Under the pieces are notes generated by a model. The model saw only the letters and a program-made list of their open reading frames with translations, searched no databases and was not told the origin of the DNA. This document shows, piece after piece, positions 5,206 to 30,498 of a stretch of DNA of 32,000 nucleotides. The DNA is from Halogeometricum borinquense DSM 11551 (lineage in GTDB: Archaea > Halobacteriota > Halobacteria > Halobacteriales > Haloferacaceae), in NCBI RefSeq assembly GCF_000172995.2, contig NC_014732.1:90001-122000 (forward strand), given 5' to 3'. Every line of letters starts with the position of its first letter. The first letter of the stretch is position 1. The translations under genes and the position numbers were made by a program.

Positions 5206-5978
5206 AGGCGCTCCGAACTGTCGCTGGCCTCGCCGGAATCGTCGTCGTCGCCGTCACTATCGGACTCGTCGCCGGCGTCGTGACACCAGTTTCGGCGCTT
5301 TCGGAACGGGTCAGTTCGCTCGACGGCGAACAGTACCTCTTAGCTCTCGCCGCGGTGTTGCTCCTCGGTGGGCTTTGGTTCGCTCGCCGCCGTGCTTCAT
5401 CAACCAGTGACCGCTTTACGGAGCTCAGAGAGATGCCCCCCGAGGGCGCTTCTGCTCCGGCGTCAATTCGCGTCGGCGGCCGGTTCGACCGGGTCGTCGG
5501 CAACGCGCTCTCGTCAGACGATGACGACGCGATGACCCCGGTCGTTACTCGGCTTCGGGAGACGGCGACCGGCCTGTACGCCGACGTGGCGAACGTTGAC
5601 CAACAGACGGCACGCCGCTGTATTCGAAACGGTGAGTGGACGGACGACGAACTCGCCGCGGCGTTCCTCGCAGCGGGGTCAGGGCAAGCTCCACTTCGGT
5701 CTCGCATCCGGGTGTGGCTCGACCCGCCACGAGAGCGTCGTCGCCGGGTCGATGCCACGCTAGACGCACTGTTCGAACTCCGCGAGGGTGTGGTTCCGGC
5801 GAGTGAAGACTCCGAACGACTGGCCGAACGGGAGTCGGAGACGCTGCGCGAATCCGAAGATTCTGCGGGACGTGAGCCAGAGACCTCCGGAACTGACGAG
5901 GGTGAGGTTGAGAGCATCGCTCCCGACGAAACTGATCACGCGTCGGCCACGAAAGTCGATGCCGGTGGTGAGCAATGA
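5202..5978 (+). CDS. hypothetical membrane protein (two N-terminal TM helices), operon member
   Basis: Its ATG overlaps the upstream stop (ATGA at 5202-5205). The product is 258 aa with N-terminal TMs ([34 protein letters not shown]) and an acidic/Arg-rich soluble tail. No catalytic motif was recognised. Similar small proteins accompany DUF58 genes in haloarchaea as far as I recall, but I could not verify this. Confidence 0.7.
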
Positions 5979-7363: not shown

Positions 7364-8985
7364 CAGACTCACCGCTTTCGGACCTCGAAACGACCGACGC
7401 CGCGCCTCCGGCGTCGAACTGGCGACCCACCGCGTTGAGTATCGCTGTTGTACTCTGCTGTACGGCGATTCTCGGCGGTCTACTCACGGGTGCGACGCAA
7501 CTCTGGAACGCTGTTCTCCCGGCCGCGGGCGGCGCGGCGCTGCTCGCGGGTGCTATCTCGCTCGCGGCGGCGACGGCGTACCGTCCGCTTTCGCGGTTCG
7601 TCGCTGCCTGCCTTCTTCTCCCGGCGAGTGCGGGCGTCGTCGCCGGCTTGGGGTACGTGTTCGCCAAGCAACTCGGCGGTACGTACCCTGTCGGGTCGGT
7701 GTTCGTCGTCGTCAGCCTCACAGCGGCGGGGTTCGGAGCGGCGGCGGCGGTCAGAGATACGCTTGAATCCGACGCGTTAGAGTCGGCACTCGCGGTCGCA
7801 ACGGTTGCTTCGCTCCCACCGACGTTCGCGTTTGTCCCGCTTGCTATCGTCCGTATCTTCGAGGAGTTCTCCGCAACGCTGTACGTTCCAGTTCTCGTCC
7901 CCGACCCGGTTCCGGCGGCGGCGTTCCCCGGTGCACTCGTTGGCGGCGTCCTTCGATTCCTTGTCGCACCGACGCACGAAGGACCGCATCTGTTTTCGTT
8001 TGCCCTCGTCTGCTATCTCGCCGTCATCGGTCTCGAGACCGTTCTCCGGACGTATCCGGTGGCAGACCTCGTCCGGCCGAACAAGCCGGAGGCCGCGGAT
8101 CGCGTCCTCGACCCACTCAAACGAGGATTGACGGCGGCGACCACACTCGGCACGCTCGTCGTCTTTATCTTGGGAATTCTCTTTCTCGCTCCGCGTGGAT
8201 TCGAGATGCTTCCCGCAACGATTCTCGATCCGGTGACGACGCTCGCGGGAGTCGATATCCTTCGTGTCGTTCTCTTTCTCGGCGGCGTCGTCGGCATTCT
8301 CCTCGGTATCGGGTCGTGGGGACTCAGGCGCTTCTACGACGCCTCTAAAGACGAACTCAGAAAGTCAACTCCCTCGCTGGTAGCCGGTTCCGCTGTCGTC
8401 ATCGGAGCGTTCACGCTCCACGAACCCGTACTTACGGCACTCCTCGATGCGATTCTCGATGTCCTTCCTGCGGCGTATGCGGGGGATGTGCAGACGCAGG
8501 CGGACGCCGTCATGGCATTCTACGGCGGTGAGGTGGTCGTTCTCGGCCTCTGTGCCGGGTTGCTCTTCGTCGCTGCTGTCGCTTTCGCGGTGCTGTACGG
8601 CGTGGTCAACATCGGCGTCATGACTGACAGGGCCGCCGGTGCCGCCGTCGCGGGCGCGGGTCTGTTCGTCGCGTCAGCAGTCGCCGCCACCGTTGGTGCG
8701 GGAACAACGCTCGTTCTCGCGGGGCTTGTCGGCGGACTCATCGTCCGCGACGCCGGAACTCACGGCGTGACTCTTGGTCACGAAATCGGTCGTCTCGGCG
8801 AGACACGCCGCGCGGAACTCGTCCACCTCGCCGTCACTGCTATCGTTGGCGTCGTCGCCGCGATAGCCGCTGTTGGCCTCGCGGACTTCCTCGGTCGAAT
8901 CCCGGCCCTCGATGGCTCGGGGCTGTCTCTCGCTCTCGGTGGCGCGGTTCTCGGCGTCCTATTTTTCGTTGTTGCTCTGCGCTGA
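7360..8985 (+). CDS. large polytopic integral membrane protein, uncharacterised, operon member
   Basis: ATGA overlap at 7360-7363. 541 aa, almost entirely hydrophobic A/L/V/G-rich segments (at least 12 predicted TM helices by eye). No recognisable motif. Confidence 0.75.
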   Translation: MTDSPLSDLETTDAAPPASNWRPTALSIAVVLCCTAILGGLLTGATQLWNAVLPAAGGAALLAGAISLAAATAYRPLSRFVAACLLLPASAGVVAGLGYVFAKQLGGTYPVGSVFVVVSLTAAGFGAAAAVRDTLESDALESALAVATVASLPPTFAFVPLAIVRIFEEFSATLYVPVLVPDPVPAAAFPGALVGGVLRFLVAPTHEGPHLFSFALVCYLAVIGLETVLRTYPVADLVRPNKPEAADRVLDPLKRGLTAATTLGTLVVFILGILFLAPRGFEMLPATILDPVTTLAGVDILRVVLFLGGVVGILLGIGSWGLRRFYDASKDELRKSTPSLVAGSAVVIGAFTLHEPVLTALLDAILDVLPAAYAGDVQTQADAVMAFYGGEVVVLGLCAGLLFVAAVAFAVLYGVVNIGVMTDRAAGAAVAGAGLFVASAVAATVGAGTTLVLAGLVGGLIVRDAGTHGVTLGHEIGRLGETRRAELVHLAVTAIVGVVAAIAAVGLADFLGRIPALDGSGLSLALGGAVLGVLFFVVALR

Positions 8986-10983: not shown

Positions 10984-11017
10984 AAATACTATAGATCTAC
11001 ACTATTAATAATTTCAT

Positions 11018-11386
11018 ATGAGCGCAAATAGTGATGAGGTATACGAACTGTACGAACAATTATCAGAAGAAGAGCGTGAAGATTTCTTCCACCGATTATC
11101 TGGTGATCTAGATTGGGTCAGCATCGACGAAAGTGTACCAGAGATTGACGAGGAACCCTGGAACTTGTATTGGCACGAATTCAAGAGTGGCTCTGACGAA
11201 TTTGAAAAATTCATCCATAACCCCCTCGCAGTACTAGCAAATTCGATCGAAGAGGTTGACGAAAGCTTCCATATAACTACTAATATTGTCAATCATCACC
11301 GAGGGCTTGCGATGACAGAGGTATGTACAATGCCGATGGTTATGGCTGAGTACGAAACAGTGCACGTTCTATTATACAAGCACTGA
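11018..11386 (+). CDS. hypothetical acidic protein encoded in the low-GC island
   Basis: An uninterrupted 122-codon ORF in ~37% GC DNA, where stops should be frequent. The start is ATG, with tattaataa upstream. The sequence is very acidic (SDEVYELYEQLSEEEREDFFHRLSGDLDWVSIDESVPEIDEEPWNLYWHEF…). No family recognised. Confidence 0.5.
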   Translation: MSANSDEVYELYEQLSEEEREDFFHRLSGDLDWVSIDESVPEIDEEPWNLYWHEFKSGSDEFEKFIHNPLAVLANSIEEVDESFHITTNIVNHHRGLAMTEVCTMPMVMAEYETVHVLLYKH

Positions 11387-11467
11387 ATAGACAAACACAT
11401 CTACAATCTGTCAGTAAATACCGTACCTCATCAATATTTTTCTGATTCTGACAAGAAGGGGTATGTA

Positions 11468-11629
11468 ATGGAGGAATATAGGGAACTCCATAGCAAGTTG
11501 CGTGCAACCCTGAACGACTTGCGACAGGCAGTTGGCGAGGCACTGGTGGTTGTGGAAGCCGAAGAATCGACCGGACTCAGTACGCGGTCCAAGCACCTGC
11601 GGACGTACGAGTCGGTACTAGTACGATGA
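11468..11629 (+). CDS. candidate 53-aa micro-ORF coupled to the downstream hydrolase gene
   Basis: This ORF is below the 60-aa cutoff and so is absent from the supplied track. Translation: MEEYRELHSKLRATLNDLRQAVGEALVVVEAEESTGLSTRSKHLRTYESVLVR. Its TGA (11627-11629) overlaps the ATG (11626-11628) of the next gene as ATGA. It is predicted helical, with intermediate GC3 (about 60%). Confidence 0.3.
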   Translation: MEEYRELHSKLRATLNDLRQAVGEALVVVEAEESTGLSTRSKHLRTYESVLVR

Positions 11630-13026
11630 TTTCGCGCCGCTCTGTTCTCCAGTGTATCACCGCTGGGTCTCTCGTCGGATTGGTTGGCCACACGGGATCT
11701 ACAGCACAACCCGAATCTACGACAGACGGAACCGACCAGAACGCCACCGGCAAGCTTCGTGTCTCACCAACGTCAGTACATTACGACGAACCGTTCACAC
11801 TCATGGTGAGTGGCATAGCTCCTGGGACAGCCGTGACGATCACGGCCCGGACGTTCGACCGCGAGGGTCGTCAGTGGGCTTCGTTCGCAACGTTCACGGC
11901 GTCCTCGAAGGGTGTCGTCGATATCGAGACGCACGCTCCGGACGCAGGGACGTACGAGACAGTTTCTCCTATGGGGTTAATCTGGTCGATGCGGCCAACC
12001 GACGGCGAATCATCAATATACGCGCCACCGGAGGGAGGCAGCGACCTGACGCTCACTGCGAGCGCCGATGGTCGACAAATCGGCCAGCAGACCGTGACCC
12101 GGTGGTTCGGTCCCAAGAAGTTGCATACCGAGGCGTCTCCCGACGGACTTCTTGGCACGCTATTCCGACCGAGCGGGGATGGTCCATATCCAGGTGTTAT
12201 GGTCCTCCACGGCTCAGGCGGTCAGCCCGCCGTCGGAAGCGCGCTCATGCTTGCCGCCCACGGATACGCAGCGTTCGCACCACAGTATTTCGGTCCGCCA
12301 GATGCAGTTCCGGACCAGCTAGCCGAGGTTCCCCTTGAATACCTCCAGCGGGGCTACGACTGGCTAACGAGCCGTCCAGCTGTTCGAGACGGCTCGGTCG
12401 GCCTCCTCGGCACTTCCAAAGGGGCTGAATTGGCGTTGCTAGCTGGTGCGACCTTCGATTGGGTCGGAGCTGTCGCGGCGTACGCACCGTCGGGCATCGT
12501 CTGGGCGGGGTTGACGTACGGTGGCGAGATGACATCGTCGTGGACACTCGACGGCGACCCGGTTCCGTTCGTCCCGACCGCGTTCCCGCCGTCGGTCATC
12601 GCCGACTACGTCGCATCGTGGCCGCTCGGAGGTTCGGTGTCGCTCCGACCGACCTACGAGGTTGGATTGGAGCAGGCGAGTACCGAGCGAATCTCGGAGG
12701 CGACGATACCGGTCGAGAACATCGACGGCCCGGTAACACTCGTCTCGGGCGGAGACGACAGATTATGGCCGTCAGCCACATTCGGACGGATGGTAGTGAG
12801 GCGACTCCGTAACCATGAGCATCCGTATCCGGTCCGACACGTTACGACGGAGACGGCGGGCCACGCCATCTCGTTCCCGTATCAGCCAACCACCGGGTTG
12901 ACGGCGATAAGCAGTCCGCCCCCGGGGACTACGATGGCATTGGGCGGGTCTCCGGAAGGCCTCGCACGGGCTAACAAGGAGTCGTGGCCGGTCGTCCTCT
13001 CGACGCTTGAGGGGGGATTATCATGA
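11626..13026 (+). CDS. Tat-secreted BAAT/acyl-CoA thioesterase-like (dienelactone hydrolase fold) alpha/beta hydrolase
   Basis: 466 aa.
- Twin-arginine signal: MISRRSVLQCITAGSLVGLVG.
- N-terminal beta-sandwich segment: KLRVSPTSVHYDEPFTLMVSGIAPGTAVTITART….
- C-terminal hydrolase: PGVMVLHGSGGQP…LAAHGYAAFAPQYFG.
- Nucleophile elbow GTSKGAELALL (GxSxG) and a late …TETAGHAI… (His). Confidence 0.85.
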   Translation: MISRRSVLQCITAGSLVGLVGHTGSTAQPESTTDGTDQNATGKLRVSPTSVHYDEPFTLMVSGIAPGTAVTITARTFDREGRQWASFATFTASSKGVVDIETHAPDAGTYETVSPMGLIWSMRPTDGESSIYAPPEGGSDLTLTASADGRQIGQQTVTRWFGPKKLHTEASPDGLLGTLFRPSGDGPYPGVMVLHGSGGQPAVGSALMLAAHGYAAFAPQYFGPPDAVPDQLAEVPLEYLQRGYDWLTSRPAVRDGSVGLLGTSKGAELALLAGATFDWVGAVAAYAPSGIVWAGLTYGGEMTSSWTLDGDPVPFVPTAFPPSVIADYVASWPLGGSVSLRPTYEVGLEQASTERISEATIPVENIDGPVTLVSGGDDRLWPSATFGRMVVRRLRNHEHPYPVRHVTTETAGHAISFPYQPTTGLTAISSPPPGTTMALGGSPEGLARANKESWPVVLSTLEGGLS

Positions 13027-15105: not shown

Positions 15106-15234
15106 ACAGCGGAGGCGGCGATCCGGATTGGTGCGGCGGCCCAGATGGACGGCAAGACGGGCGCATGCGCCCGATCCAGCCAGTTGATTGATGTGGGAGA
15201 CGCCGGTGGCTGTACCCGAGGGTACTCTCGACAG

Positions 15235-16212
15235 ATGATTCAGACTGGGCAGGCGGTACAGGTTGGCATTGTCGTCGTGTCGGTCGCCGGACTGTGGATC
15301 GGCGCGCGTCTGCTCGTCGATTCTGTTGTCCGGTTAGCGCGACGCGTCGGCCTATCGGAGTTGACCATCGGACTGACCGTCGTCGCCGCGGGCACCTCCA
15401 CACCCGAACTCGTTGTCACGGCCGATGCAGCCCTCGTGGGGCTCGGTGATATCGCCGTCGGCAACGTCGTCGGCTCGAACATCTACAATTTGGCGTTCAT
15501 CCTCGGCGTGGTCTCGCTGCTCCGGGTCGTCCCAATAGAGCGCTCGCTCGTCCACCGCGACGGAGTCGCATTACTCGTCAGTACGTTCCTCGGCGTGTAC
15601 GCGATATCCGACTCCGTGGTGACCCGAGGCGAGGGAGCGGTCCTCGTCGGCCTGTTCGTCGCGTACATCGCCTTTCTGCTTCGAAGCGGAATCACGGACG
15701 AAATGTCGGCCGACGCGGACGCCCCGCCCGGCGTCACCACCACCGTCACCGAGCGAATACAGTTCCGCGGGCGTGACGTCGTCTTGTTGGTCGCCGGACT
15801 GGCTATCGTCCTCATCAGCGGCGACCTGATGGTGGGATCGGCCTCGGAACTGGCGCGTGGCGCGGGCGTCTCCGAGTGGGTTATCGGTGGGACAATCGTC
15901 GCCGCTGGCACCTCCACGCCGGAGTTCGCCGTCTCGCTCGTGGCGATGCGACGCGGCCGACTCGGCGTCAGTGTCGGCAACGTGGTCGGGAGCAACGTGT
16001 TCAATCTCCTCGTCATTATGGGTGTCGGCGCGGTGATTCGTCCGCTGTCGCTAAGCGGTTCTATCGGGCTGAGTCTGACGTGGTTGGTCGCCGTCTCCGT
16101 CGCCGTGGTCGCGGCTCTCTGGACGGGGCGTCGCCTCTCGCGTGCGGAAGGCGGACTGTTCGCGGGGTCGGAAGTTATCCGGTGGGTCGTCGGCCTCCTC
16201 GGTCTCGGGTAG
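15235..16212 (+). CDS. CaCA-family sodium/calcium exchanger (YrbG-like)
   Basis: 325 aa from ATG 15235; the listed ORF has a non-hydrophobic 30-codon extension. It has the two alpha-repeats GLTVVAAGTSTPELVVT…GNVVGSNIYN and GGTIVAAGTSTPEFAVS…GNVVGSNVFN, and about 10 TM helices. Confidence 0.9.
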   Translation: MIQTGQAVQVGIVVVSVAGLWIGARLLVDSVVRLARRVGLSELTIGLTVVAAGTSTPELVVTADAALVGLGDIAVGNVVGSNIYNLAFILGVVSLLRVVPIERSLVHRDGVALLVSTFLGVYAISDSVVTRGEGAVLVGLFVAYIAFLLRSGITDEMSADADAPPGVTTTVTERIQFRGRDVVLLVAGLAIVLISGDLMVGSASELARGAGVSEWVIGGTIVAAGTSTPEFAVSLVAMRRGRLGVSVGNVVGSNVFNLLVIMGVGAVIRPLSLSGSIGLSLTWLVAVSVAVVAALWTGRRLSRAEGGLFAGSEVIRWVVGLLGLG

Positions 16213-16216
16213 GTTC

Positions 16217-17185
16217 TCAGTCGTTCTGCCGTGCCGAGGCAACGGGCGGGACGGGGACGCTGTCGAGGACTTCGTCCACTACGTCGAGTGGATCGACACC
16301 GCGGACGCGCGCGTCCGATGTCAGGACAAGTCGGTGGCGGAACACCGACGGTGCGGCGGCTTTCACGTCGTCCGGGACGGCGTAGTCGCGTCCTCGGATG
16401 ACCGCGCGGGCGCGCGCAGCCTCGAACAGTCGCTGGATTCCACGCGGGGAGACGCCGACATCGACGCGGGCGTCTTCACGTGTCGCACGACCTAAATCGA
16501 CGATGTAGTCGCGCAGTTTCTCGTCCACGCGGACGTGTTCGGGGACAGAGCGGAGTGCGGACACTTGTTCATCGGTGACGACGCGCGAGGCCGACGGGGA
16601 ACGCCGCGTCCGGTCGGCCCGCCGGTCGATGAGTTCGCGCTCGCCTTCGCGTCCGGGGTACCCGAGTTCGGTCTTGACGATGAACCGATCCCGTTGCGCC
16701 TCGGGCAGGCGGAACGTTCCTTCCTGTTCGACTGGGTTCTGCGTGGCGATGACGAAAAACGGGTTCGGGAGGTCGTGGGTGACGCCGTCCACCGTGACCT
16801 GTCCCTCGCCCATCGCTTCGAGGAGCGCGGCCTGCGTCTTCGGCGGCGCGCGGTTAATCTCGTCTGCGAGGACGACGTTGGCGAAGATAGGGCCGGGTTG
16901 GAACTCGAACGCTCCCTGTCGCTCGTCGTAGACGTTCGACCCGGTGATGTCGGCTGGGAGGAGGTCGGGCGTGAACTGAATACGGGCGAACGAGAGACCG
17001 AGGGCGGCGGCGATGCTCCGTGCGGTCAGCGTCTTTCCGGTGCCGGGAACGTCCTCGAGGAGGACGTGACCTCGGGCGAGGACGCCAGTCAAGACGGTTT
17101 CGAGGAAGTCGCGCTCTGCGACGACTGCGGCGCTGACAGCCTCGACCACGTCGTCGCACGTCGCCGCGGCCTGTGGTACGTCCAT
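16217..17185 (-). CDS. MoxR-family AAA+ ATPase
   Basis: 322 aa from ATG 17185. Motifs: HVLLEDVPGTGKTLTARSIAAALGLSFARIQFTPDLLPADITGS (Walker A), NVVLADEINRAPPKTQAALLEAM (Walker B) and FFVIATQNPVEQEGTFRLPEAQRDRF. Its stop is only 4 nt from the convergent antiporter stop. Confidence 0.95.
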   Translation of the reverse strand: MDVPQAAATCDDVVEAVSAAVVAERDFLETVLTGVLARGHVLLEDVPGTGKTLTARSIAAALGLSFARIQFTPDLLPADITGSNVYDERQGAFEFQPGPIFANVVLADEINRAPPKTQAALLEAMGEGQVTVDGVTHDLPNPFFVIATQNPVEQEGTFRLPEAQRDRFIVKTELGYPGREGERELIDRRADRTRRSPSASRVVTDEQVSALRSVPEHVRVDEKLRDYIVDLGRATREDARVDVGVSPRGIQRLFEAARARAVIRGRDYAVPDDVKAAAPSVFRHRLVLTSDARVRGVDPLDVVDEVLDSVPVPPVASARQND

Positions 17186-17438
17186 AGGGCCGCTTCGGCG
17201 GACCACCTTTTGAACTTTCCCGTCGGAGAACCAACTTGTTGGCCGTCTACATGACATCGGTGACTTATTTTCACGTCCGCAAGCGAGTCGGGAAGCGTGG
17301 CGAGAGACACTGTCTGATTTTGAAGCTACGCAGACGGGCGGGATAGATTTATGAGTGCTTTCTCTCGATGAGTATCATGTCAAATCAGTGTTTGCTCTGT
17401 ACGCCCCCAACGACCACTCGGCGTAGACTCATCGCCCG

Positions 17439-19937: not shown

Positions 19938-20399
19938 TCACTGGCGTCTGCTGCGAACGTACGACACCTCGTCAGCCGCCGCCAACGCCGGCAAATCCTC
20001 GACGGCGGCGCGACCCTCCACGAGCGACTCGTGGCGGTTTTTCACGTCTACTGTGGGCGAGGATGGGAGGTTGCCCTCCGATCCGAGTTCGACCACGATG
20101 CGGACGTGTCCCTCATCGTACGCTACCCCGGCACTATCGGCGTACGCTGATCGGCTGTCGGCCTCAACCAGTCCAACGAGTCCGTTGCCGAGATGTTCAC
20201 GTGCGGTGTCGGTCACCGTGGTTGGACTGCTCTCGGTCGGCGCTGTCGCTGTCTGTGTTTCGCTCCCACCAGTTTCCCCCATTTTCCCCGACGAACCGGT
20301 TTCGTTACCCGGGCGTCCCCCAAGACACCCCGCGAGGCCCACTGCACGGACCGAAACGACACCGGCGACGAATCGACGTCGGGTCGAATCGTCGAACAC
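19938..20399 (-). CDS. Tat-exported lipoprotein, function unknown
   Basis: I chose the GTG at 20399; the ORF opens at TTG 20414. This gives (M)FDDSTRRRFVAGVVSVRAVGLAGC, i.e. a twin-arginine motif plus a lipobox (LAGC). A S/T/G/E-rich linker and an ~100-aa globular part follow. Confidence 0.65.
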   Translation of the reverse strand: MFDDSTRRRFVAGVVSVRAVGLAGCLGGRPGNETGSSGKMGETGGSETQTATAPTESSPTTVTDTAREHLGNGLVGLVEADSRSAYADSAGVAYDEGHVRIVVELGSEGNLPSSPTVDVKNRHESLVEGRAAVEDLPALAAADEVSYVRSRRQ

Positions 20400-20420
20400 G
20401 GCTGCCTCTTCCAAATACGC

Positions 20421-20794: not shown

Positions 20795-23503
20795 CTACGC
20801 TGTGCCCTCAGTACGTATCTCGAAGCGCGCTCCGCCGGTTTCGCTCTCCGTAATGTGTACTGTCCATTCGTGAGCGTGAGCGATTGTGCGAACGATACCG
20901 AGTCCGAGTCCGGTACCTTGGGGTTGCGTCGAGACTCCGGGTTCGAACACCTCGTCTCGGTCTGCTTCGGGGATGCCACGTCCATCGTCTTCGACGAAAA
21001 ATCCGTTCGAGAGACGCCCGACGCGGACTGTTATCGTCTCGTCGGGTGAGTTGTGATCGATGCTGTTTCGAAACAGGTTCTCGAACAGTTGTTTCAGCCG
21101 CCCCTCGTGTGCCGCTATGGTTCCGAGGTTGTCCGCAACGACGAGGGTGGCGTTGGTGCCGTTCACCGCTGTTTCCCACGACTCTCGGGCGACGCTACCG
21201 AGAAGGACTGTCTCCCGTTCTTCGACGGGTTGTCCCTGCCGTGCGAGGCTCAGCATGTCTTCGATAATCTGGCGCATCCGCTGATGAGCGTCCTCGATAC
21301 GTTCGAGTCGCTTTTCTATCGTGTCGTACTGGCCTGCCTCGTGATTCGCACGAAGGATTTGCAGTTGTCCGGACGCGAGATTAAGTGGGTTCCGCAAGTC
21401 GTGGCTGACGACGCTCGCAACCTGTTCGAGTTGCTCGTTTTGGTGTTCGAGTTCGCGTTCGTGGTGACGGAGCAGTTGCTCTCGTTCGACGCGTTCGAGC
21501 GCCGCACTCGCGTTCGAGGCCAGAATTCGAGCGAGCGAGACACGGGAGTCGTTCAGCGTTCCGGGTTCTCGTGATCCCGCCATCAGCACTCCGACATCAC
21601 CGATGGGAAGAACGACCTCACTCTGTATCTCCGTATCGGGGTTCATTACCGCAGGGTCCGTGGAGACGTTCTCGAACACCTCACCTTCGCCGCTCTCGAA
21701 CACTCGCCACGCGATGCCGTGCCCTCGTGGGATGACCTCGTCGTCAACAATCTCCTTTGCGGCATCGGACACCGCGTGGGTAAGCAGCGCATCGCGGTCT
21801 TCGTCGTAGAATGAGATGCTGTTCAGCGGATAGTTGAGGATGTTTTCCGCCGCATCACTCACGATTGTTGCGACTTCCTCGTACGTCGTCGCCGTCGTCA
21901 GTTCTCGGCTTGCGCTGTGGAGCGCGCTCAGTCGGGCTTGATACTGCTTGCGCTCGGTTACGTCCGTCGTCAGGGCAACGACTCCTCGCTGTTGCGACTC
22001 GTCACCAATGCCCACCTCACACGCTGATTCATGCTCGTCTCGGAGCGGTGAGAAGGTAACCTCGATGTACTCGATATCTCCTGGGATATCGACTTCGAGT
22101 TCGACTCGCTCGTTATCTGACTCGCCGTCGAGAATCCGGTCGATGGCTGTCTGTACTGCTTCGAGCCCATCCGCATCGATCATCCCCGTCTCGTGTAAGA
22201 CGCTCACGTGTTCTCCGCGGATGTTCTCTTCTGGCTCTCTCATCCGAGTGCCAGCCACGGGACTTACGAACTCGAAGCACCCGTCTGTTCCGATGATGTA
22301 TGCACCTTGTGTGGTGCTTCGGACGACGTTCTCGTAGCGGTGGAGTCGTCGCTCGCGCTCTCGCTGATCGGTCACGTCGCGCGAGTTGACGACGATGCCG
22401 TCGATACTCTCCACTGGGTCTGCACGGGCGATAGATTCTAGCCACACCCACGATCCATCGGCGTGGCGGCTACGAAACCGCGCCGTCTCGACTCTCGACG
22501 AGTCGGAGTTGTACATTTCCGTGAGGAGGTTTTGCATCTCTGCTCTGTCTTCCGGATGGATGAACGTCATCACGCTCTGTCCCTCGACGAGTTCGGGCGA
22601 CACGCCCAGTATCCGCTCGCAGGATGGACTCTGATATTTGATGGTGCCGTCTCGGCCGATAATTGTCACGAGGTCGGACGACCGTTCGATAAGAGCCTGA
22701 AACCGCTCTTCGACGCGTTCCTCGTCGCTCATCTCGCGGACAGACCCGAGGACGGCGCGTTCGCCTTCGTACTGAATCCCTTGGACGCTGAACTTACACC
22801 GCTTTGCAGTTCCGTCTTTCGTTACGATTCGTGCCGTGTATCGTGACGGCGTTTCAGGGTCCTCGCGCCTCCGCTTTGCCGCGATGTCGCGGACGCGTTC
22901 TTTGTCGTCCGGGTGAATGAGTTTCCAGATTTCCGTCTCGTTTAGTTCCTCTTCGTCGTACCCCGTCAGTTCGCACGTCCGACGGTTGACGAACTGAAAC
23001 TGCTCGCCCTGATAGATGTAGATGGCGTCGTGACTCCGCTCAACGGCAGTACGGTACAACTGCTCGCTCTCGCGGAGACGACGCTCAGTCCGATAGTGTT
23101 CGACAGCGTTGTTGATACGGTTTGCGAGGAGTTCGTACTGCTCGACTCGTGTTCGCTTTTGGATATAGTCGGTGACACCCGCGGAGATGGCTTCGCTTGC
23201 CACTTCCTCGCTCCCACGACTCGTAAAGAGAATAAATGGAAGTCGTTCGTCTACGTCTCTGACGCGTCTGAGAAGATCGATTCCGGTGGTTTCACCCATC
23301 TCGTAGTCGCTTACGACACACTCGATTTGCGCCGTCTCTCCGTCGGACACCGCGCCGTCAGCATCTCCCAGATGGGTAACTACAGAATCGGTGTCGGTCT
23401 CGACGCAGACCTCGAACCCGCCCTGTCGTTCGAGGTGTGTCGCCACGAGTTCGGCAAACGCCGGGTCGTCATCGACGTGCAGCACACGAACCGGCTCGGT
23501 CAT
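20795..23503 (-). CDS. multidomain sensor: receiver (REC) + 3 or more PAS + GAF + HisKA/HATPase histidine kinase
   Basis: 902 aa.
- REC: VRVLHVDDDPAFAELV…CVVSDYEMGETTGIDLL…FILFTS.
- PAS segments: YRTAVERSHDAIYIYQG…; FQALIERSSDLVTIIGRDGTIKYQSPS…; YENVVRSTTQGAYIIGTDG….
- GAF-like: LSALHSASRELTTATTYEEV….
- H-box: VASVVSHDLRNPLN.
- N/G boxes: LFRNSIDHN, VEDDGRGIP, GTGLGLGIV. Confidence 0.95.
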   Translation of the reverse strand: MTEPVRVLHVDDDPAFAELVATHLERQGGFEVCVETDTDSVVTHLGDADGAVSDGETAQIECVVSDYEMGETTGIDLLRRVRDVDERLPFILFTSRGSEEVASEAISAGVTDYIQKRTRVEQYELLANRINNAVEHYRTERRLRESEQLYRTAVERSHDAIYIYQGEQFQFVNRRTCELTGYDEEELNETEIWKLIHPDDKERVRDIAAKRRREDPETPSRYTARIVTKDGTAKRCKFSVQGIQYEGERAVLGSVREMSDEERVEERFQALIERSSDLVTIIGRDGTIKYQSPSCERILGVSPELVEGQSVMTFIHPEDRAEMQNLLTEMYNSDSSRVETARFRSRHADGSWVWLESIARADPVESIDGIVVNSRDVTDQRERERRLHRYENVVRSTTQGAYIIGTDGCFEFVSPVAGTRMREPEENIRGEHVSVLHETGMIDADGLEAVQTAIDRILDGESDNERVELEVDIPGDIEYIEVTFSPLRDEHESACEVGIGDESQQRGVVALTTDVTERKQYQARLSALHSASRELTTATTYEEVATIVSDAAENILNYPLNSISFYDEDRDALLTHAVSDAAKEIVDDEVIPRGHGIAWRVFESGEGEVFENVSTDPAVMNPDTEIQSEVVLPIGDVGVLMAGSREPGTLNDSRVSLARILASNASAALERVEREQLLRHHERELEHQNEQLEQVASVVSHDLRNPLNLASGQLQILRANHEAGQYDTIEKRLERIEDAHQRMRQIIEDMLSLARQGQPVEERETVLLGSVARESWETAVNGTNATLVVADNLGTIAAHEGRLKQLFENLFRNSIDHNSPDETITVRVGRLSNGFFVEDDGRGIPEADRDEVFEPGVSTQPQGTGLGLGIVRTIAHAHEWTVHITESETGGARFEIRTEGTA

Positions 23504-23549: not shown

Positions 23550-24293
23550 TCACAGGTTTGCGCGAATCTCTTCACGCAGTCGGTCCCGAACCGACGCGAC
23601 GCTCGGGTTGTCGTCGGTCAGGCTGAACTTCGTGTGTCGCTCGTCAACGTCGAGAGCTTCCGAGAAGATACCGCCGCGGCGGTCTACCTCCACGAACACG
23701 TCCAGCGATGACGCCGAGGGGACGAAGACGAGTTCGATTTCGTCTACATCGCCGCGGAACTCCCCACTGGAGGGACGGAACTCGAACTCCTGGACGAAGC
23801 GACGCCCGCCCACGTATCGACCGTACGGGTCGGCCTCGCATTCGGTGGTCCGGAGTGAGAAGCCGAGTTCTTCTGCGGCGTCGAAGACGGCCTGCATCCG
23901 CGGTGTGGGTTGCACGTCGAGATAGTCCACGTCCTCGGGATCGACGGCCATGTCGATCTCTAACTCCGTTTCCACCCACACTTCGGTGGATCCGAGAGTC
24001 AGCGGCGTTTCCCACGGGATCGTGATCTCGGCGTCGTACGTCGTCTCTTCGCCGGGTTCGATATCGAACGATTCACTGAGACGCATTCGCCCGACGGTCG
24101 TGTCCCTGTACCCCTCTTCGGTTCGGTACCGCGTCTCGACTTCGAGGTCGATTGCACTGATCGACTGTTCGGCGTCGCCGCCGCTGACCCGCACTTCGGC
24201 ATCGACCGTCTCACCGGGCGAGACGGTGGTGGAGGGCAGAACGGTATCGACGCTGGCGTTACCGATTCCGACGCTTGCGAGGATTTTCTTCAT
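23550..24293 (-). CDS. SpoOM (Spo0M)-family protein
   Basis: 247 aa from ATG 24293. The N-terminus MKKILASVGIGNASVDTVLPSTTVSPGETVDAEVRVSGGDAEQSISAIDLEVETRY is the classical SpoOM opening. Confidence 0.9.
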   Translation of the reverse strand: MKKILASVGIGNASVDTVLPSTTVSPGETVDAEVRVSGGDAEQSISAIDLEVETRYRTEEGYRDTTVGRMRLSESFDIEPGEETTYDAEITIPWETPLTLGSTEVWVETELEIDMAVDPEDVDYLDVQPTPRMQAVFDAAEELGFSLRTTECEADPYGRYVGGRRFVQEFEFRPSSGEFRGDVDEIELVFVPSASSLDVFVEVDRRGGIFSEALDVDERHTKFSLTDDNPSVASVRDRLREEIRANL

Positions 24294-24487: not shown

Positions 24488-24526
24488 CGTTTCAGGTTTC
24501 CAAACCCCCCTCTAGCAATTCCGTCG

Positions 24527-24536
24527 AAAAAGAAAA
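24527..24536 (-). terminator. T-run terminator after the TSP3/wHTH gene
   Basis: The coding strand reads TAG-CTG-TTTTCTTTTT immediately after the stop. This is an archaeal oligo-T termination signal. Confidence 0.4.
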
Positions 24537-24539
24537 CAG

Positions 24540-26087
24540 CTACGTCGGATTCTCGAACGGCGACCGCGCCCCGTCTGGTTCGTAGCCCGGCAGGGTGATG
24601 AGGTTCCGACGGCCGAGTGAGATTTTCGTTACGCGTCCCTCGTCAGCCATCGATGAGAGGACACGGCTGACCGTCGCCTTCGACCATCCCGTCTCCGAGA
24701 CGATGGTACTCTGTTCCAGTCGGCCGCCCGCTTCTTCGAGGATGGCGATGATTTCATCCTCTCGGGTGAGGGGTTCGTCGTATTCGGTGTCGTCAGCACC
24801 GCCTTTGGCTCCCGCTGTCGTTGGAGCGTCGTAGCCCGCTGGTTCTGGACCCGGCTCGCTCGCTGTTTCCGAGGTGTTTGTCCCCGTCGTGTCAGACACC
24901 GCGGTTGCTTGGTCAACGGTAGCAGCACCGCCCGAGTCGTCGCCGTCGTCGGTCGTCGCGGGCGCGCCACCGCCCCGACTCCGCCACCAGAGGTAGCCCC
25001 CACCGACGGCGAGGACGGTGGTCCCGAGGAGGGCAAATGCGGCACTCGTCGAGATGGGCGTATCCGGTTGGGTATCCTCTCCGGGATTGGTCCCCTGTTC
25101 TATCTCCACCTTGTCGCTCGTTCCGTCGCCGTCGGTGTCTGGTTTGTTCGGGTCCGTTCCGTGAACGTTCACCTCGGCACCGTCTTTGAGGCCGTCACTA
25201 TCGGTGTCGGCTTTGTTCGGATTCGTGTTCGTCTCTTCTACTTCAATCGCGTCCGCGAGATTGTCGTTGTCCGTATCGGGCTTACTCGCATTCGTCTCGT
25301 GAGTGTTTATCTCGGCACCGTCTGAGAGGCTGTCGCCGTCGGTGTCTGCCTTGTTGGGGTTTGTATTGTACGTTCGAATCTCGGCAGCGTCCGAGAGACC
25401 GTCGTCGTCTGTGTCGCCATTCGTTGGCGATGTCGAGTACTTGTTCACCTCGACGCCGTCTTTGAGGTTGTCGCTGTCGGTGTGGGGGTCTGTCGGGTTC
25501 GTGTTGTACGTCGAGACTTCGAGCGAGTCTCCGAGATTGTCATTATCTGAGTCACTCTTGGTCGGATCGGTGCCGTGTGTGTTGACCTCTTCCCCGTCGT
25601 TGAGACCATCGTCGTCGGTGTCAGCGGTCCGGAATCCGGTTTTACCGTTCACTTCCTCTTTGTTCGAGAGGCCGTCATCGTCGATGTCACCGTCCTTCGT
25701 CATCACGAACACGACCCTTTCCGAGACGCGTGTCTCTCCGTCCGTTCCGTTTACGTAGACGTTCTGCGGCCCTGTCACCTCCGTGGGCCACTTCGAAACG
25801 GTGAGCGTCACTGAGGTCGTTCCGTTCCCGGCCGAACACGCGACGGTCGCGTTTCCGCTCTCCGGTCCAATACAGACGGACGCTGACGATGAAATCGGTT
25901 TTTCTGTCTCAACCCGTACGTCGGTGGATGATGACTGCCAGACGTATGTGATTCCGTCGATGGTGGCCACGGTTTCCGAGGTGACCGTCGTTCCGGGCGC
26001 CGCCGCCACTGGCGCACCGATCACGCCGAGGAGGACGAGTACGGCCGCGCCGAACGAGAGTACGGACCGAAGTACGGTTGAAGACAT
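24540..26087 (-). CDS. membrane-tethered winged-helix protein with extracellular thrombospondin-type-3-like Ca-binding repeats
   Basis: 515 aa from ATG 26087; a GTG at 26123 is an alternative. Residue numbers below follow the 527-aa ORF.
- Signal peptide: MSSTVLRSVLSFGAAVLVLLGVIGAPVAAA.
- A ~100-aa beta-rich domain.
- About 9 D-x-D-x-D-G/N-L-x-D-x-x-E repeats (aa ~144-345, nt ~25089-25694), e.g. DTDDDGLNDGEEVNTHGTDP and DTDGDSLSDGAEINTHETN.
- One TM followed by RSR (aa ~359-383, nt ~24984-25049).
- An acidic linker.
- C-terminal wHTH: REDEIIAILEEAGGRLEQSTIVSETGWSKATVSRVLSSMADEGRVTKISLGRRNLITL (nt ~24588-24773). Confidence 0.85.
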   Translation of the reverse strand: MSSTVLRSVLSFGAAVLVLLGVIGAPVAAAPGTTVTSETVATIDGITYVWQSSSTDVRVETEKPISSSASVCIGPESGNATVACSAGNGTTSVTLTVSKWPTEVTGPQNVYVNGTDGETRVSERVVFVMTKDGDIDDDGLSNKEEVNGKTGFRTADTDDDGLNDGEEVNTHGTDPTKSDSDNDNLGDSLEVSTYNTNPTDPHTDSDNLKDGVEVNKYSTSPTNGDTDDDGLSDAAEIRTYNTNPNKADTDGDSLSDGAEINTHETNASKPDTDNDNLADAIEVEETNTNPNKADTDSDGLKDGAEVNVHGTDPNKPDTDGDGTSDKVEIEQGTNPGEDTQPDTPISTSAAFALLGTTVLAVGGGYLWWRSRGGGAPATTDDGDDSGGAATVDQATAVSDTTGTNTSETASEPGPEPAGYDAPTTAGAKGGADDTEYDEPLTREDEIIAILEEAGGRLEQSTIVSETGWSKATVSRVLSSMADEGRVTKISLGRRNLITLPGYEPDGARSPFENPT

Positions 26088-26865
26088 ATCGATTCCTGTT
26101 GTATGTATCACTATACGTTTCACTCAAAAACTTACTGACTTATGTCGGAATGGAGGTATAATGTGGTTCTAAAACAGCTATATCTTTAAGAAATTCAATT
26201 TATCCGACTGGTACTTGGACGCCCAGTTCTCCCCTCTCTTCCTTTTCACCGGGTGCTATCGAAGGGATTCATTTGGCGGACTGTGGCGTGATGAAACGGT
26301 CCGGTTTTGAAGCCGTTAACGGCGGTTTCCCCCGTGAAACAGTCGTGAAACAATGGAAGTAATCGGAACGAGTGTGACCGTCTTTACCCGTCCAGTTACT
26401 TGGTATCGGTGATGGCATCGTACGGACCACCGAACGTGTGACAGCTACTTCCCCACTATCGCTGTCCACGTCTGAGGTCCGAGCCATCGTCAGGTGACGG
26501 ACAGCGGTTTCGGACGATCGACGCCGGGCACGGAGGCCTCCCCTCTTCCCCGGCCGCAACCCCCGCCCCGCCGTTATCCCCATGGCGGCGCTCCTATCCC
26601 ACTTTGCGGGGGTCTTCTCGTCGCATCCCCAGCGACATCCCTTCGTCCGACTCCCACATCGGCACGCCACGCGGCGTCGCATCCCATAAACGTTCGCGTG
26701 GCCGTTCCCGGTGCCCGGTCTCGCGTCCGAACCGCCTTTCGCTCGTACTCACGATCCGTAGCCGTTTCTCCGGCTAGCACCGTGTACTACGGCACGCTTT
26801 CAAACACGACAACTGTCTTTAACATCGACTAAATCCGTTGTTTCGTATTTTACGTTACTTCGTAG

Positions 26866-28002: not shown

Positions 28003-30498
28003 CTATTCGTCGTACTCGGACAAGCGGTATTCGACCTGTTCGTTCATCTCTTCGAGGACGCGTTCGACTTCACGCCCTTCGATGAGTTCCGAGAGGCCTT
28101 CCGAGATAATGGTTCGAACCGTACTGAACGGGCCAATTCGGGCACCGCACGTCGCGGGCGTGTCCTGGCTCTCGTTCAGTTGCTCGAACGCGACGGCGAA
28201 TTCGGGGTGTTCCTCGAACCAGCCGTCGCGGCGAAGCATCCGTTCGGCGTCGCCGTGAACTGGGAAGTATCCGGTCTGTTGGTGCCACCGACGCTGTTGT
28301 TCCGGTTCGGTCAACCACGCGAGGAAACGACCGGCGGCCTCCTGTTCGCGGGCCGGCACGTCGTCGGCCACCCACAGCGATGCCCCGCCGACGACCACAC
28401 CTTCCTGCGTCCCCGGTGCCGGGAACTTGCCGACGGACGCGTTAAAGCCGCGTTCGTCGGCCCCTTCGACGACTGAGAGCGTGTTCGAACTCGAATCGAC
28501 GAGCATCGCAGCGTCGCCGTCGAGGAACGCCTCACGCGCTCTGCCGCGAGCCTCGATACCGGGATCGAACAGCAGCCCCGTTCGGGCGAGGTCCGACCAC
28601 CAACGGAATATCGTCTCGCCGGTGTCGCTCGACAGATTCGCCGTCGTCGCCGTTCCGTCTCGTCCGTTCGATGCATCTACGAGCGTCTCTCCGGCCGTAG
28701 CGAACCACTGTTCGATGAACCAACTGTAGTTCGCCCACGTCGCTCCGTACTCTGCGGCACCGCTCTCGACCACTTTCTCGGCGGCTTGCGTCAGGTCGTC
28801 GAACGTCTCCGGTGGATTCGACGGGTCGAGACCAGCGCGTTCGAACGCGTCGGCGTTGTAGTACAACACCGGATTCGAACTGTTGAACGGCAGCGACCAC
28901 AGCGTTCCGTCGTCGCGGTAGTAGTTTGCGATGGACGGGACGAGGTCGCTCGTGGATGTTTCGGCTGGGAGGACCGATTCTACGGGGGTGAACACACCGC
29001 TGTCGAGTGCGCGCTTCGTCCCGATTTCGAACAACTGCGCGACGGTCGGTGGCGATCCGGACCGGGCCGCAGCCATTGTCGCGTCGAACGTCCCGCGGTA
29101 GTTACCCTTGGGCGACATATGGACGTGGATGTCGTCGTGTTCGTCGTTGAACTCCTCGGCAAACGACTCCATCAGAATCGCCTTCGACCCCGACATCGCG
29201 TGCCAAAACTGAACGATAGTCTTCCCGGCGACTGTTTCGGCTTTCCCGAGGTCGTACTCGTCTAACGTCTCTTGGAGTACGTCAGCCTGCTCTGCGAGCG
29301 CGTTGACGTTCGTCATCGCCTCCGAGAGCGACGTTGTCTGTCGTCGGGCCGACTTCACCACGGTGGTCGCCTGTGCGGCCGTCTCCTCGCTTATCGCACC
29401 CACTTCGTCGGCTTGTCCGACGACTTCCTGCGCCGTCGTGGCCTGTGAGTCGGTCGCATCGCTTATCTCTTGGACGCTGGCGTTCGTCTCCTGTACGTCC
29501 TCGACCATCTCATCGAGCGATCCGAGCGCTTCTTCGATGGTTTCGCTCTCGGTGGCGACCCGTTCTCGCGCCTCGGTGATTCCCTCGACGGTTTCCTCTG
29601 ATTGTGCCCGAATTTCCTCGATAGCCGCCTCGATGTCTTCGGTTGCCTCCTGCGTCTCGGTTGCGAGTGACTTTACCTCGTCGGCGACGACGGCGAACCC
29701 CGCTCCCGCCTCGTTCGCCCGTGCGGCCTCGATGGACGCGTTGAGCGCGAGGATGTTCGTCTGTTCGGCAATTTCAGAAATCTGCGTGACGACGCCGGTG
29801 ATGTCGTCGATGAGTTCGTTCAGCGAGTCCACTTGCGAGACGGTCCGCTGGGTCTGTTCGTCGATAGCGTCGAGTCCGTCGATGGCTTCTTCAGCGGCGT
29901 CTCTGGCTTGCTGTCCGCGCGTCGCGGCGTCCGACGTCGAAGAGGCAATTTCGTCCGCGGACGAGGCCACTTCTTCGACGGTCGCAGAGAGGTTCCGCAT
30001 CTCGTTTGCAACTTCGTCGATGCTCTCGCTCTGCTGTGTCGCCCCTTCGGCGATATCGTCTACCGAATCGGAGACGTTTCGGCTCGCGCTTCGACTGTCC
30101 TCGACCGAATCAACGACGCTTTCGGTGGAGGCGGAAACCTGCTTCGCAAACACGTCCACGTCAGCCATCGTTCCGTGCAACTCCGCAAATAGATCGTTGA
30201 GGGACTCCGCCAACTGAGCCATCTCGGGGTCGTCCGGCACATCCACTCGAACGCTCAGGTCACCGTCGGTGAACTGGTTTACTGCCGCGGTGAACTCCTC
30301 GGCGAGAGCGGCCTTCGGAGACGAGTCGTCGGTGGTCGCATCTGTCGTCGCGTCAGGGGAGACGACGCTTCCACCGTCCGTGCCGACCCGTTCTGTTTCC
30401 TGTGCCGACGACTCGCCGGTATCTCGCTTGAAAACCCTCGCTGCGAGTCGTTCTCGTAGCGATGGTTCCGGCGCGCTCGTGCCGTGGTTGTCTCTCAT
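28003..30498 (-). CDS. soluble methyl-accepting chemotaxis transducer (Htr-like) fused to a C-terminal ABC-type solute-binding-protein (UgpB/sugar-type) domain
   Basis: 831 aa, with no hydrophobic TM segment.
- HAMP-like: [39 protein letters not shown].
- MCP signalling hairpin: [40 protein letters not shown] (aa ~65-415, nt ~29254-30306).
- From aa ~422 (nt 28003-29235), an SBP-like domain: [27 protein letters not shown]…[12 protein letters not shown]…[23 protein letters not shown]…[14 protein letters not shown]…GGASLWV…. It has no signal peptide or lipobox at the junction. Confidence 0.9.

Follow-up and report, generated by a model that had tools for sequence, protein, structure and literature searches.

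The closest described systems are regulators held in the membrane, among them ToxR, which acts on direct repeats, CadC, whose linker is disordered, and the archaeal ArnR, whose transmembrane (TM) helices are C-terminal and which has no sizeable ectodomain. ToxR is reported to bind multiple sites, thereby tethering DNA to the membrane (PMC10629549). ArnR and ArnR1 of Sulfolobus acidocaldarius are characterized archaeal membrane-bound transcription factors (PMC6396743, PMC13286277), with the helix-turn-helix (HTH) of ArnR placed at the N terminus (PMC13286277). Response regulators that bind DNA are rarely found in archaea (PMC5847659). The coupling of extracellular signals to archaeal transcription is poorly understood, and ArnR and ArnR1 are the characterized membrane-bound factors that we found. 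Here we describe a gene from Halogeometricum borinquense DSM 11551, located in a stretch of 32,000 nt of contig NC_014732.1 (the window; all coordinates below are counted from its first letter), whose product joins nine bacterial-type thrombospondin type-3-like repeats through a single predicted TM segment to a winged helix-turn-helix (wHTH) of the family DUF7343 at the C terminus.

Like ToxR, CadC and TcpP, this TSP3-DUF7343 protein is predicted to have one TM segment joining an extracytoplasmic domain to a cytoplasmic wHTH via a flexible linker, with no phosphorelay. A preliminary description of the locus had spoken of ToxR/CadC-like logic with reversed polarity, and that wording fits the anatomy, with the ectodomain N-terminal, the wHTH C-terminal and one TM segment between them. 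Unlike ToxR, which is N-in (type II) and has an N-terminal wHTH of the OmpR type, the window protein is predicted to be type I with its wHTH at the extreme C terminus. The Pfam scan gave no match to Trans_reg_C in the window protein, the wHTH being the ArsR/MarR-like DUF7343 instead; the domain of life and the transcription machinery differ from those of ToxR, CadC and TcpP as well. Because Trans_reg_C is missing, the domain order is reversed and the membrane type is opposite, the protein would work like ToxR and CadC yet falls outside that family.

We consider it somewhat more likely than not that TSP3-DUF7343 is a type-I single-pass, membrane-tethered one-component DNA-binding regulator with a divalent-cation-dependent ectodomain. 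The new element reported here is a set of tandem ACYGTTTC sites upstream of TSP3-type DUF7343 genes. The features of the gene and its product, all on the minus strand, are as follows.

24540..26087, minus: coding sequence of the TSP3-DUF7343 membrane protein, 515 aa plus stop (open reading frame call, Pfam, hydropathy)
25998..26087, minus: signal peptide or signal anchor, aa 1-30; Sec-type, with one Arg, no RR, no lipobox and an AAA end (hydropathy)
25701..25991, minus: immunoglobulin (Ig)-like beta-sandwich ectodomain, aa 33-129 (AlphaFold2 confidence above 90; Foldseek; invariant C72/C84, W50 and W100-P101)
25074..25694, minus: nine TSP3_bac repeats of 23 aa each, aa 132-338 (Pfam, register, invariant columns, AlphaFold2)
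24984..25055, minus: single TM segment ISTSAAFALLGTTVLAVGGGYLWW, aa 345-368 (hydropathy)
24975..24983, minus: RSR positive-inside cluster, aa 369-371, directly after the TM segment
24771..24974, minus: acidic, low-complexity, predicted-disordered cytoplasmic linker, aa 372-439 (AlphaFold2 confidence below 50)
24588..24770, minus: wHTH, Pfam DUF7343, aa 440-500, with recognition helix WSKATVSRVLS (Pfam, AlphaFold2, Foldseek)
24543..24587, minus: conserved C-terminal tail GYEPDGARSPFENPT, past the end of the Pfam model (consensus in three DUF7343 classes; P504 invariant)

In the protein database search the window protein is 98% identical to a Halogeometricum borinquense entry. The longest form of the open reading frame (ORF) runs over 24540..26123 (minus strand) from a GTG. 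The true start is likely the ATG at 26087, since homologues begin with MSSTALRS or MSQPALRS and the 12-codon GTG extension runs into a conserved promoter-like block. Two hydrophobic segments are present in the 515-aa product, aa 1-36 (ending in AAAP) and aa 345-368. The first, where a signal peptide had been proposed, has Sec-type character, occurs in 77 of the 81 homologues listed and is presumably cleaved as a signal peptide.

An AlphaFold2 model was built on a 65-sequence alignment, with a mean predicted local distance difference test score (pLDDT) of 83.7. Confidence exceeds 90 for all three folded modules (the beta domain, the repeat array and the wHTH) and is low at the TM segment and at aa 371-436, the pLDDT of the linker being <50. 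The anticipated beta-rich domain and low-complexity linker are thus both seen in the model. The segment aa 33-129 is all-beta, and a Foldseek search with the whole model returned Ig V-set, LILR and CD8-like folds for it, i.e. Ig-like sandwiches. Neither the Pfam scan of the protein nor a PDB sequence search with the N-terminal domain gave a significant match for this domain.

In the repeat array TSP3_bac (PF18884) matches with 108 bits against a gathering cutoff of 25 (E = 1.9e-31) in seven stretches, and reading of the register extends these to nine repeats over aa 132-338 in an exact 23-residue spacing, x-D-T-D-x-D-G/N-L-x-D-x-x-E-V-...-T-D/N-P, so that each carries the D-x-D-x-D-G/N-L-x-D-x-x-E motif. 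In the model the array (aa 134-335) reaches a pLDDT of about 98, and each repeat contains a single short helix. All the ligand positions, Asp and Glu alike, are invariant in the alignment columns of 65 homologues, and no tandem repeat was found at the DNA level in this region; the repeats are therefore old and maintained at the protein level, and generic acidic low complexity, the halophile artefact against which the preliminary description had weighed its own proposal of nine TSP3 copies, does not account for them. The eukaryotic TSP_3 model (PF02412) gave no match at E ≤ 1 in the Pfam scan, the bacterial-type model alone matching. Judged from the ligand pattern, the repeats presumably bind Ca2+.

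The evidence favours an N-out/C-in, type I topology with one TM segment. Over 100 TSP3-type homologues the mean number of Lys and Arg residues within 12 aa is 2.6 after the TM segment versus 0.7 before it; most of the 81 listed homologues have one later hydrophobic segment, usually followed by Arg (Arg after the TM segment in about 80). The invariant Cys pair C72/C84 and the Ca-type repeats both lie on the predicted outside. DUF7343 itself is assigned to the cytoplasm because soluble DUF7504-DUF7343 fusions, described below, have no hydrophobic segment. The positive-inside bias, the Ca-type repeats and Cys pair outside and the occurrence of the same wHTH in soluble proteins together underlie the topology, and hydropathy, charge bias and soluble paralogues thereby predict a single TM segment between a DNA-binding-type domain inside and a domain outside. 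The earlier expectation of one TM segment followed by RSR, with the C terminus inside, is supported by these comparisons.

Conservation of the TM segment is confined to hydrophobicity, its sequence being unconserved among homologues. This bears on an alternative in which the protein does not signal at all and serves as a structural tether. A rigid, Ca2+-loaded TSP3 stalk of fixed length, joined to the wHTH, would then constitutively connect the envelope or the S-layer space with DNA or with the nucleoid, for instance as an anchor for a replicon or locus. With an unconserved TM sequence and a disordered linker there is no obvious conformational relay; repeat numbers stay between 8 and 10 in the different genera, which would suit a spacer or ruler; and bacterial proteins with TSP3 repeats (OmpA-like, CglD, MtsC) serve structural or adhesive purposes at the cell surface. 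Against it, DUF7343 also occurs in fusions with soluble DUF7504, where envelope tethering is impossible. We regard the tether as unlikely and return to it with the DNA sites.

The wHTH is assigned with confidence to DUF7343 (PF24034, archaeal wHTH), with 84.6 bits against a cutoff of 27.6 over aa 440-500 and profile positions 2-62 of 62, and its pLDDT is about 96. The C-terminal wHTH expected at residues ~450-512 is thus present; the attribution to MarR or TrmB did not hold, since MarR_2 (20.7 versus 27), MarR (13.5 versus 24.6) and TrmB (14.5 versus 25.6 bits) all fall below their cutoffs and the model has no flanking dimerization helices of the MarR kind. HTH_IclR is marginal over the same residues as DUF7343 (26.3 bits, cutoff 22), and membership of the IclR family was rejected on this marginal score, the missing IclR effector domain and the C-terminal position of the HTH. 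As modelled, DUF7343 is a bare wHTH of about 62 aa without a dimerization domain of its own.

A separate AlphaFold2 model of aa 430-515, used for a Foldseek search of the PDB with the wHTH alone, matched exclusively DNA-binding winged helices: ArsR, SqrR, SrnR, HlyU and CadC-pI258 of the ArsR/SmtB type; PcaV, HosA and HpaR of the MarR type; and AspA-DNA, HsmR with and without DNA, TubR, PyrSV gp04, F93 and Z-alpha. Query-normalized TM-scores are 0.55-0.66 and root mean square deviations 1.2-2.9 Å over about 60 residues, and the E-values, about 1e-3 to 1e-2, are in the range that a domain of 60 residues should give. A PDB sequence search with the wHTH found nothing significant (weak Z-alpha/ADAR and IclR-like matches at E > 0.1). 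On these structural grounds the wHTH would be expected to bind DNA. Its net charge, −1 over 61 aa versus −50 over the 312 aa of the ectodomain, also fits this character.

Invariant positions in the wHTH region are Q459, V463, W468, S469, K470, S474, R475, G492, N495 and P504. The pattern GGRMxQxxIVEETGWSKSKVSxxLSxM...GRxN and the tail LPGxEPxGAxSPF are kept in TSP3-type, other long and short DUF7343 proteins, and conservation of the recognition helix WSKSKVS reaches at least 90% in every class, in a class comparison whose sample is biased towards query-like proteins. Such near-invariance is unusual among paralogous sequence-specific regulators and may mean a common target or partner.

The last of these thoughts has a specific form, in which the winged helix is a protein–protein module that recruits a cytoplasmic partner, such as the RecA/KaiC-like DUF7504, to an envelope-spanning receptor while another factor binds the upstream motif. 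An invariant 'recognition' helix fits a common protein partner, the conserved tail EPxGAxSPF, which is not part of the wHTH fold, has the look of a short linear motif, and the wHTH is still net acidic; the gene association with DUF7504 (below) points the same way. Against it, the close structural matches are all DNA binders, the conserved K470, R475, K488 and N495 in recognition helix and wing are typical of DNA contact, and a wHTH output in a fusion is the usual one-component logic. We hold this explanation to be distinctly improbable.

The linker raises a different possibility, a sub-variant of the regulator reading in which the protein is inactive while it stays in the membrane, until envelope or cation stress leads to cleavage in or near the TM segment or linker and sets free a soluble linker-wHTH fragment. 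A long, exposed, disordered linker is a natural protease substrate (its length varies from 17 to 346 aa across homologues), the databases contain many short entries, of 80-200 aa, that are linker-wHTH proteins or fragments, and a free factor would more easily reach the motif, which in the window is about 200 bp away from the promoter-like block. On the other side, truncated metagenomic ORFs probably make up many of these short entries, the alignment showed no conserved cleavage motif in linker or TM segment, and no protease gene is consistently linked, a subtilase downstream being found in one locus only (L081). As an explanation in its own right this variant seems to us very unlikely.

The architecture had been thought undescribed for a membrane-bound wHTH protein; this proved wrong for the databases, where about 80 of the best 120 clusters carry TSP3_bac plus DUF7343 under automatic names. 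It occurs in at least 12 haloarchaeal genera plus metagenomes, the genera being Halogeometricum, Halopelagius, Halorarum, Halosimplex, Halobacterium, Halomarina, Halobaculum, Haloferax, Haloarcula, Salinigranum and Halobonum, with Haladaptatus (locus L001; L numbers denote loci in the comparison) and Halomicrobium (L097) in addition. The family is catalogued as DUFs in public databases, and a literature search found no paper on DUF7343 or on the combination of TSP3 and HTH in archaea. For COG2512, the membrane-associated wHTH group that the preliminary description had named, the search gave nothing relevant.

An exhaustive HMMER search with the wHTH only, at E ≤ 1e-3, gave 2046 representatives at 50% identity, whereas a word-indexed protein search with the 84-aa wHTH alone gave no matches. 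In nearly all of the best 150 HMMER matches DUF7343 sits at the extreme C terminus, typically after signal peptide, ectodomain and one TM segment. The largest other class comprises proteins of about 400 aa with a DUF7345 ectodomain; a soluble class, DUF7504(+DUF7090)-linker-DUF7343, has no hydrophobic segment and includes plasmid-borne examples. The family thus combines a single conserved output with inputs that vary (TSP3, DUF7345, short ectodomains, DUF7504), as one-component logic has it. A scan of genome contigs with the full alignment was dominated by TSP3-only proteins of bacteria and other archaea, the full architecture being found in L001, L002 and L005 only and L025 carrying a protein without wHTH; among phage records there was no DUF7343 match.

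Fusions of DUF7504 to DUF7343 are seen in L091 (3143-4264), L096 (3176-4234) and L099 (3122-4243). Stand-alone DUF7504 genes lie directly upstream of TSP3-DUF7343 on the same strand in L082 (5112-5714) and L088 (7143-7817), from Halorarum and Halobaculum. Fusion in one place and adjacency in another suggest, as a Rosetta-stone link, that DUF7504 and DUF7343 act together, and these are the gene associations that speak for the protein–protein module.

The DNA upstream of the gene carries two conserved elements.

26123..26137, minus: conserved block CAGTAAGTTTTTGAG / CAGTAAGTTTTTGA, 36-50 nt before the ATG (an island in a three-genome upstream alignment)
26293..26354, minus: upstream cis-element with three sites co-oriented with the gene (three-genome alignment and motif counts)
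26347-26354, minus: site ATTGTTTC of the cis-element
26336-26343, minus: site ACTGTTTC of the cis-element
26293-26300, minus: site ACCGTTTC of the cis-element

The block at 26123..26137 is promoter-like and would correspond to the TATA box and transcription factor B recognition element (BRE) region. Together with the sites at 26293-26354, which include an inverted pair GTTTC-N6-GAAAC, it is among the few islands conserved in the three-way upstream alignment of the window, H. pallidum and Halopelagius. Across loci, upstream regions carry tandem GAC[CT]GTTTC[G/A], frequently with a spacing of 9-13 bp and in some cases arranged as GTTTC-N5/6-GAAAC. Outside these sites and the block, the 740-bp stretch upstream of the gene (26124-26865) is poorly conserved; it has no convincing ORF, Rfam family or tRNA, and no homologue of neighbouring small ORFs was found. 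An ORF called at the equivalent place in Halopelagius (L081) looks spurious; H. pallidum (L100) has a 116-aa ORF there.

The exact 8-mer ACYGTTTC was counted in 24 haloarchaeal loci (327 kb), L100 being added only afterwards. In the 24 loci 23 of the 42 copies lie within 1 kb upstream of a DUF7343 gene, 21 of these 23 are co-oriented with the gene, and the density is 0.96 per kb upstream versus 0.063 per kb elsewhere. After Pfam typing, and with L100 included, 12 of 17 TSP3-type loci have at least one exact copy within 1 kb upstream and nine of 17 have at least two, while the corresponding 1 kb of other DUF7343 loci has none (0/7); in control 1-kb windows (n = 1018) the frequencies are 5.7% for one or more copies and 0.4% for two or more. 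Among TSP3-type loci held out from motif derivation 6 of 11 have the motif (binomial probability about 1e-5). The motif-bearing upstream regions are those of the window, L081-L083, L085-L090, L005 and L100.

One of these loci is on plasmid pHV3 of Haloferax volcanii DS2 (L089), where the homologue is HVO_RS01365. Its assignment to the DUF7345 type was rejected, Pfam typing it as TSP3-type, and the motif is therefore subtype-specific and not tied to all DUF7343 genes. ACYGTTTC also precedes the adjoining DUF7504 gene in L082 and L088. We propose the array as a candidate operator, or else as a candidate upstream activating sequence.

A motif that is specific to the protein's own gene, co-oriented with it and placed upstream of it resembles regulation, and most loci show no linkage to partition or replication genes; both points tell against the structural tether introduced above. 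Evidence for that tether at the DNA-binding end is that the recognition helix is near-invariant over classes, which suggests a common and not a gene-specific target, and that the best folds include the centromere-binding AspA and TubR.

Several observations weigh against the regulator reading. Five of the 17 TSP3-type loci (L001, L002, L084, L097 and L098, the last with variant sites only) lack the motif. The window taken alone has six copies against 2.7 expected, which is not significant, so the motif evidence is comparative; the loci are partly related (L100 is congeneric with the window, and three are Haloferax) and so are not fully independent. In the window, the sites are upstream of the promoter-like block by about 200 bp, a long way for an archaeal activator or repressor of the classical kind. 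All DUF7343 classes keep WSKSKVS at 90% or above, yet the motif stands upstream of the TSP3 type only, and so a different factor may bind it, or specificity may reside elsewhere, e.g. in R475 or the wing. The AlphaFold2 model shows the TM region without a helix and with low confidence, and the neighbourhood reveals no consistent regulon.

If TSP3-DUF7343 is nevertheless a tethered regulator, its action might be pictured as follows. Outside, the Ig-like domain would sit atop a stalk of nine Ca2+-binding TSP3 repeats whose folding or stiffness would depend on divalent cations, and the ectodomain would putatively sense cations as its signal. Inside, the flexible acidic linker of about 70 aa would let the minimal wHTH reach DNA. 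Because this wHTH has no dimerization domain and the TM sequence is unconserved, the signal would pass by altered oligomerization or clustering of the ectodomain, or by proteolytic release, rather than by conformational relay. The candidate target is the tandem co-oriented ACYGTTTC array upstream of the protein's own gene, to which we infer that it binds; this would amount to autoregulation, extended in some genomes to the adjoining DUF7504 gene. Several tethered monomers would bind the direct repeats cooperatively, in the manner of ToxR.

The motif also bears comparison with a described haloarchaeal element. H. borinquense makes gas vesicles; H. volcanii is not known to carry gvp genes. In the gas-vesicle promoter PmcA of Hfx. 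mediterranei the upstream activating sequence for GvpE is TGAAACGG-n4-TGAACCAA, with consensus YGAAAYGA; this element must abut the BRE and is reported to be specific to gvp clusters (PMC2241852). Read as its reverse complement, ACCGTTTCA becomes TGAAACGGT, which equals the distal 8 nt of that element (TGAAACGG), and in both cases short direct repeats stand upstream of BRE/TATA. Unlike the GvpE element, ACYGTTTC sites are on the opposite strand relative to transcription and 70-350 bp upstream, and they occur on H. volcanii DS2 plasmid pHV3 as well. GvpE was rejected as the general binder of the motif because the motif also precedes the pHV3 gene of H. volcanii, a species not known to have a gvp cluster. 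The resemblance is probably coincidental.

The genes around TSP3-DUF7343 form no conserved unit. Directly 3′ of its stop codon lies one further feature.

24525..24539, minus: T-rich tract CTGTTTTCTTTTTCG (sequence reading)

This tract is a probable archaeal terminator, and 246 nt separate it from the Spo0M start; given the tract and that gap, the gene is probably monocistronic. Neighbours on the same strand encode Spo0M (23550-24293), a REC-PAS-GAF histidine kinase (20795-23503) and a Tat-lipobox protein (19938-20414). The preliminary description had seen here a same-strand cluster headed by our gene; the neighbours exist as described, and the idea of a conserved unit fails in a comparison of the window with the 12 further loci that encode a full-length homologue and have gene context (L001, L002, L005, L081-L088 and L100; 13 in all). 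Spo0M occurs in none of the 12, and the kinase is kept within Halogeometricum only (L100, H. pallidum), where an SDR gene takes the place of Spo0M. Of the 13 loci, the window, L081 and L082 alone, all from related genera, have a set of MoxR, DUF58 and transglutaminase/DUF4129(-DUF7519) genes no more than 8 kb from the full-length homologue. The set is equally near the TSP3 gene at L025, whose protein lacks the wHTH; it directly adjoins the TSP3 gene in L025 and L082. In the window this set occupies 2377-8985 (plus) and 16217-17257 (minus), encoding a transglutaminase-core/DUF4129 protein of 942 aa, DUF58, DUF7519 and a MoxR AAA_3 ATPase. A DUF7344 wHTH gene adjoins TSP3-DUF7343 in L001 (7088-7726), L002 (9931-11394) and L083 (7290-7808). 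A fixed operon was thus rejected, with Spo0M confined to the window, the kinase to Halogeometricum, the MoxR set to 3/13 loci and DUF7344 to three.

On pHV3 the adjoining gene (L089 5348-6121, HVO_RS01370) is a 'helix-turn-helix domain-containing protein' gene, so that a second HTH gene is adjacent in four loci (L001, L002, L083 and L089). In Halosimplex it is the DUF7344 gene that has the GTTTC array upstream of it, pointing to a unit of two genes there, DUF7344 and TSP3-DUF7343. A Na+/Ca2+ exchanger gene (Na_Ca_ex; window 15145-16212, plus) lies about 8 kb from our gene, and in Halobacterium zhouii (L098) a sodium:calcium antiporter gene (534-1568) lies 1 kb upstream of TSP3-DUF7343 and an Nramp divalent-metal transporter gene downstream. 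With 2 of 17 loci, these neighbours hint weakly at a Ca2+/divalent-cation theme. Small, very acidic, Thr/Glu/Asp-rich lipobox proteins are encoded divergently upstream in L085 (7030-7659, minus; Halobacterium sp. R2-5) and L086 (7433-7828, minus; Salinigranum marinum), and the window Tat-lipobox protein (19938-20414, minus) resembles them in the signal region only.

Farther off in the window, 28003-30498 (minus) encodes 831 aa with HAMP and MCP signalling domains and C-terminal SBP_bac_8/SBP_bac_1, and its product looks like a chemotaxis transducer fused to a substrate-binding protein. The GC content falls to 0.50 at 11001-12000, versus 0.58-0.67 in the flanks, around the intergenic region before a BAAT/acyl-CoA thioesterase gene (11626-13026); a single ACTGTTTC copy lies inside this low-GC stretch at 11354-11361 (minus).

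The haloarchaeal envelope depends on divalent cations, and H. volcanii is the standard genetic model among haloarchaea. With its ectodomain being a Ca2+-type repeat array, the TSP3 subtype is a candidate envelope or cation sensor. The family is abundant in haloarchaea (the 2046 representatives above) and simple in its modular layout of input, TM segment and output; the conserved upstream array provides a concrete DNA probe, and the pHV3 homologue makes the function testable. A broader proposal, which we put forward as doubtful, is that TSP3-DUF7343 proteins are founding members of a haloarchaea-wide set of type-I tethered factors whose Ca2+ stalk reads the cation or envelope state, which bind tandem ACYGTTTC repeats and so draw a small regulon, along with their own promoter, towards the membrane, with DUF7504 proteins as partners. 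If that were true, DUF7343, with >2000 clusters at 50% identity and interchangeable inputs, would be a major unrecognized one-component signalling system of Halobacteria, and could help explain why DNA-binding response regulators are so scarce in archaea.

With ArnR and ArnR1 the window protein has in common that it is an archaeal, membrane-anchored, HTH-containing one-component regulator, as we read it; unlike ArnR, which is crenarchaeal and to which no sequence relationship was found, it has a C-terminal HTH and a large ectodomain. The repeats link it to bacterial TSP3_bac surface proteins: PF18884 is common to both, the TSP3 block is up to 58% identical to OmpA-family proteins, and CglD and MtsC of Myxococcus give partial NCBIfam matches. 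Those OmpA-like, CglD and MtsC proteins are outer-membrane or cell-surface proteins with structural and adhesive roles and no DNA-binding domain, whereas here the repeats form the ectodomain of a wHTH protein. DUF7345-TM-DUF7343 and soluble DUF7504-DUF7343 proteins share with it a wHTH at the C terminus, an acidic linker and the conserved tail, and the DUF7345 membrane paralogues also have signal peptide, ectodomain and single TM segment in the same layout; the input domain differs, and the ACYGTTTC array was found upstream of the TSP3 type only. ArsR/SmtB, MarR and AspA (the pNOB8 centromere-binding protein), the best structural matches to the wHTH, are soluble dimers with dimerization helices of their own, whereas DUF7343 is bare and its sequence similarity to them is not significant.

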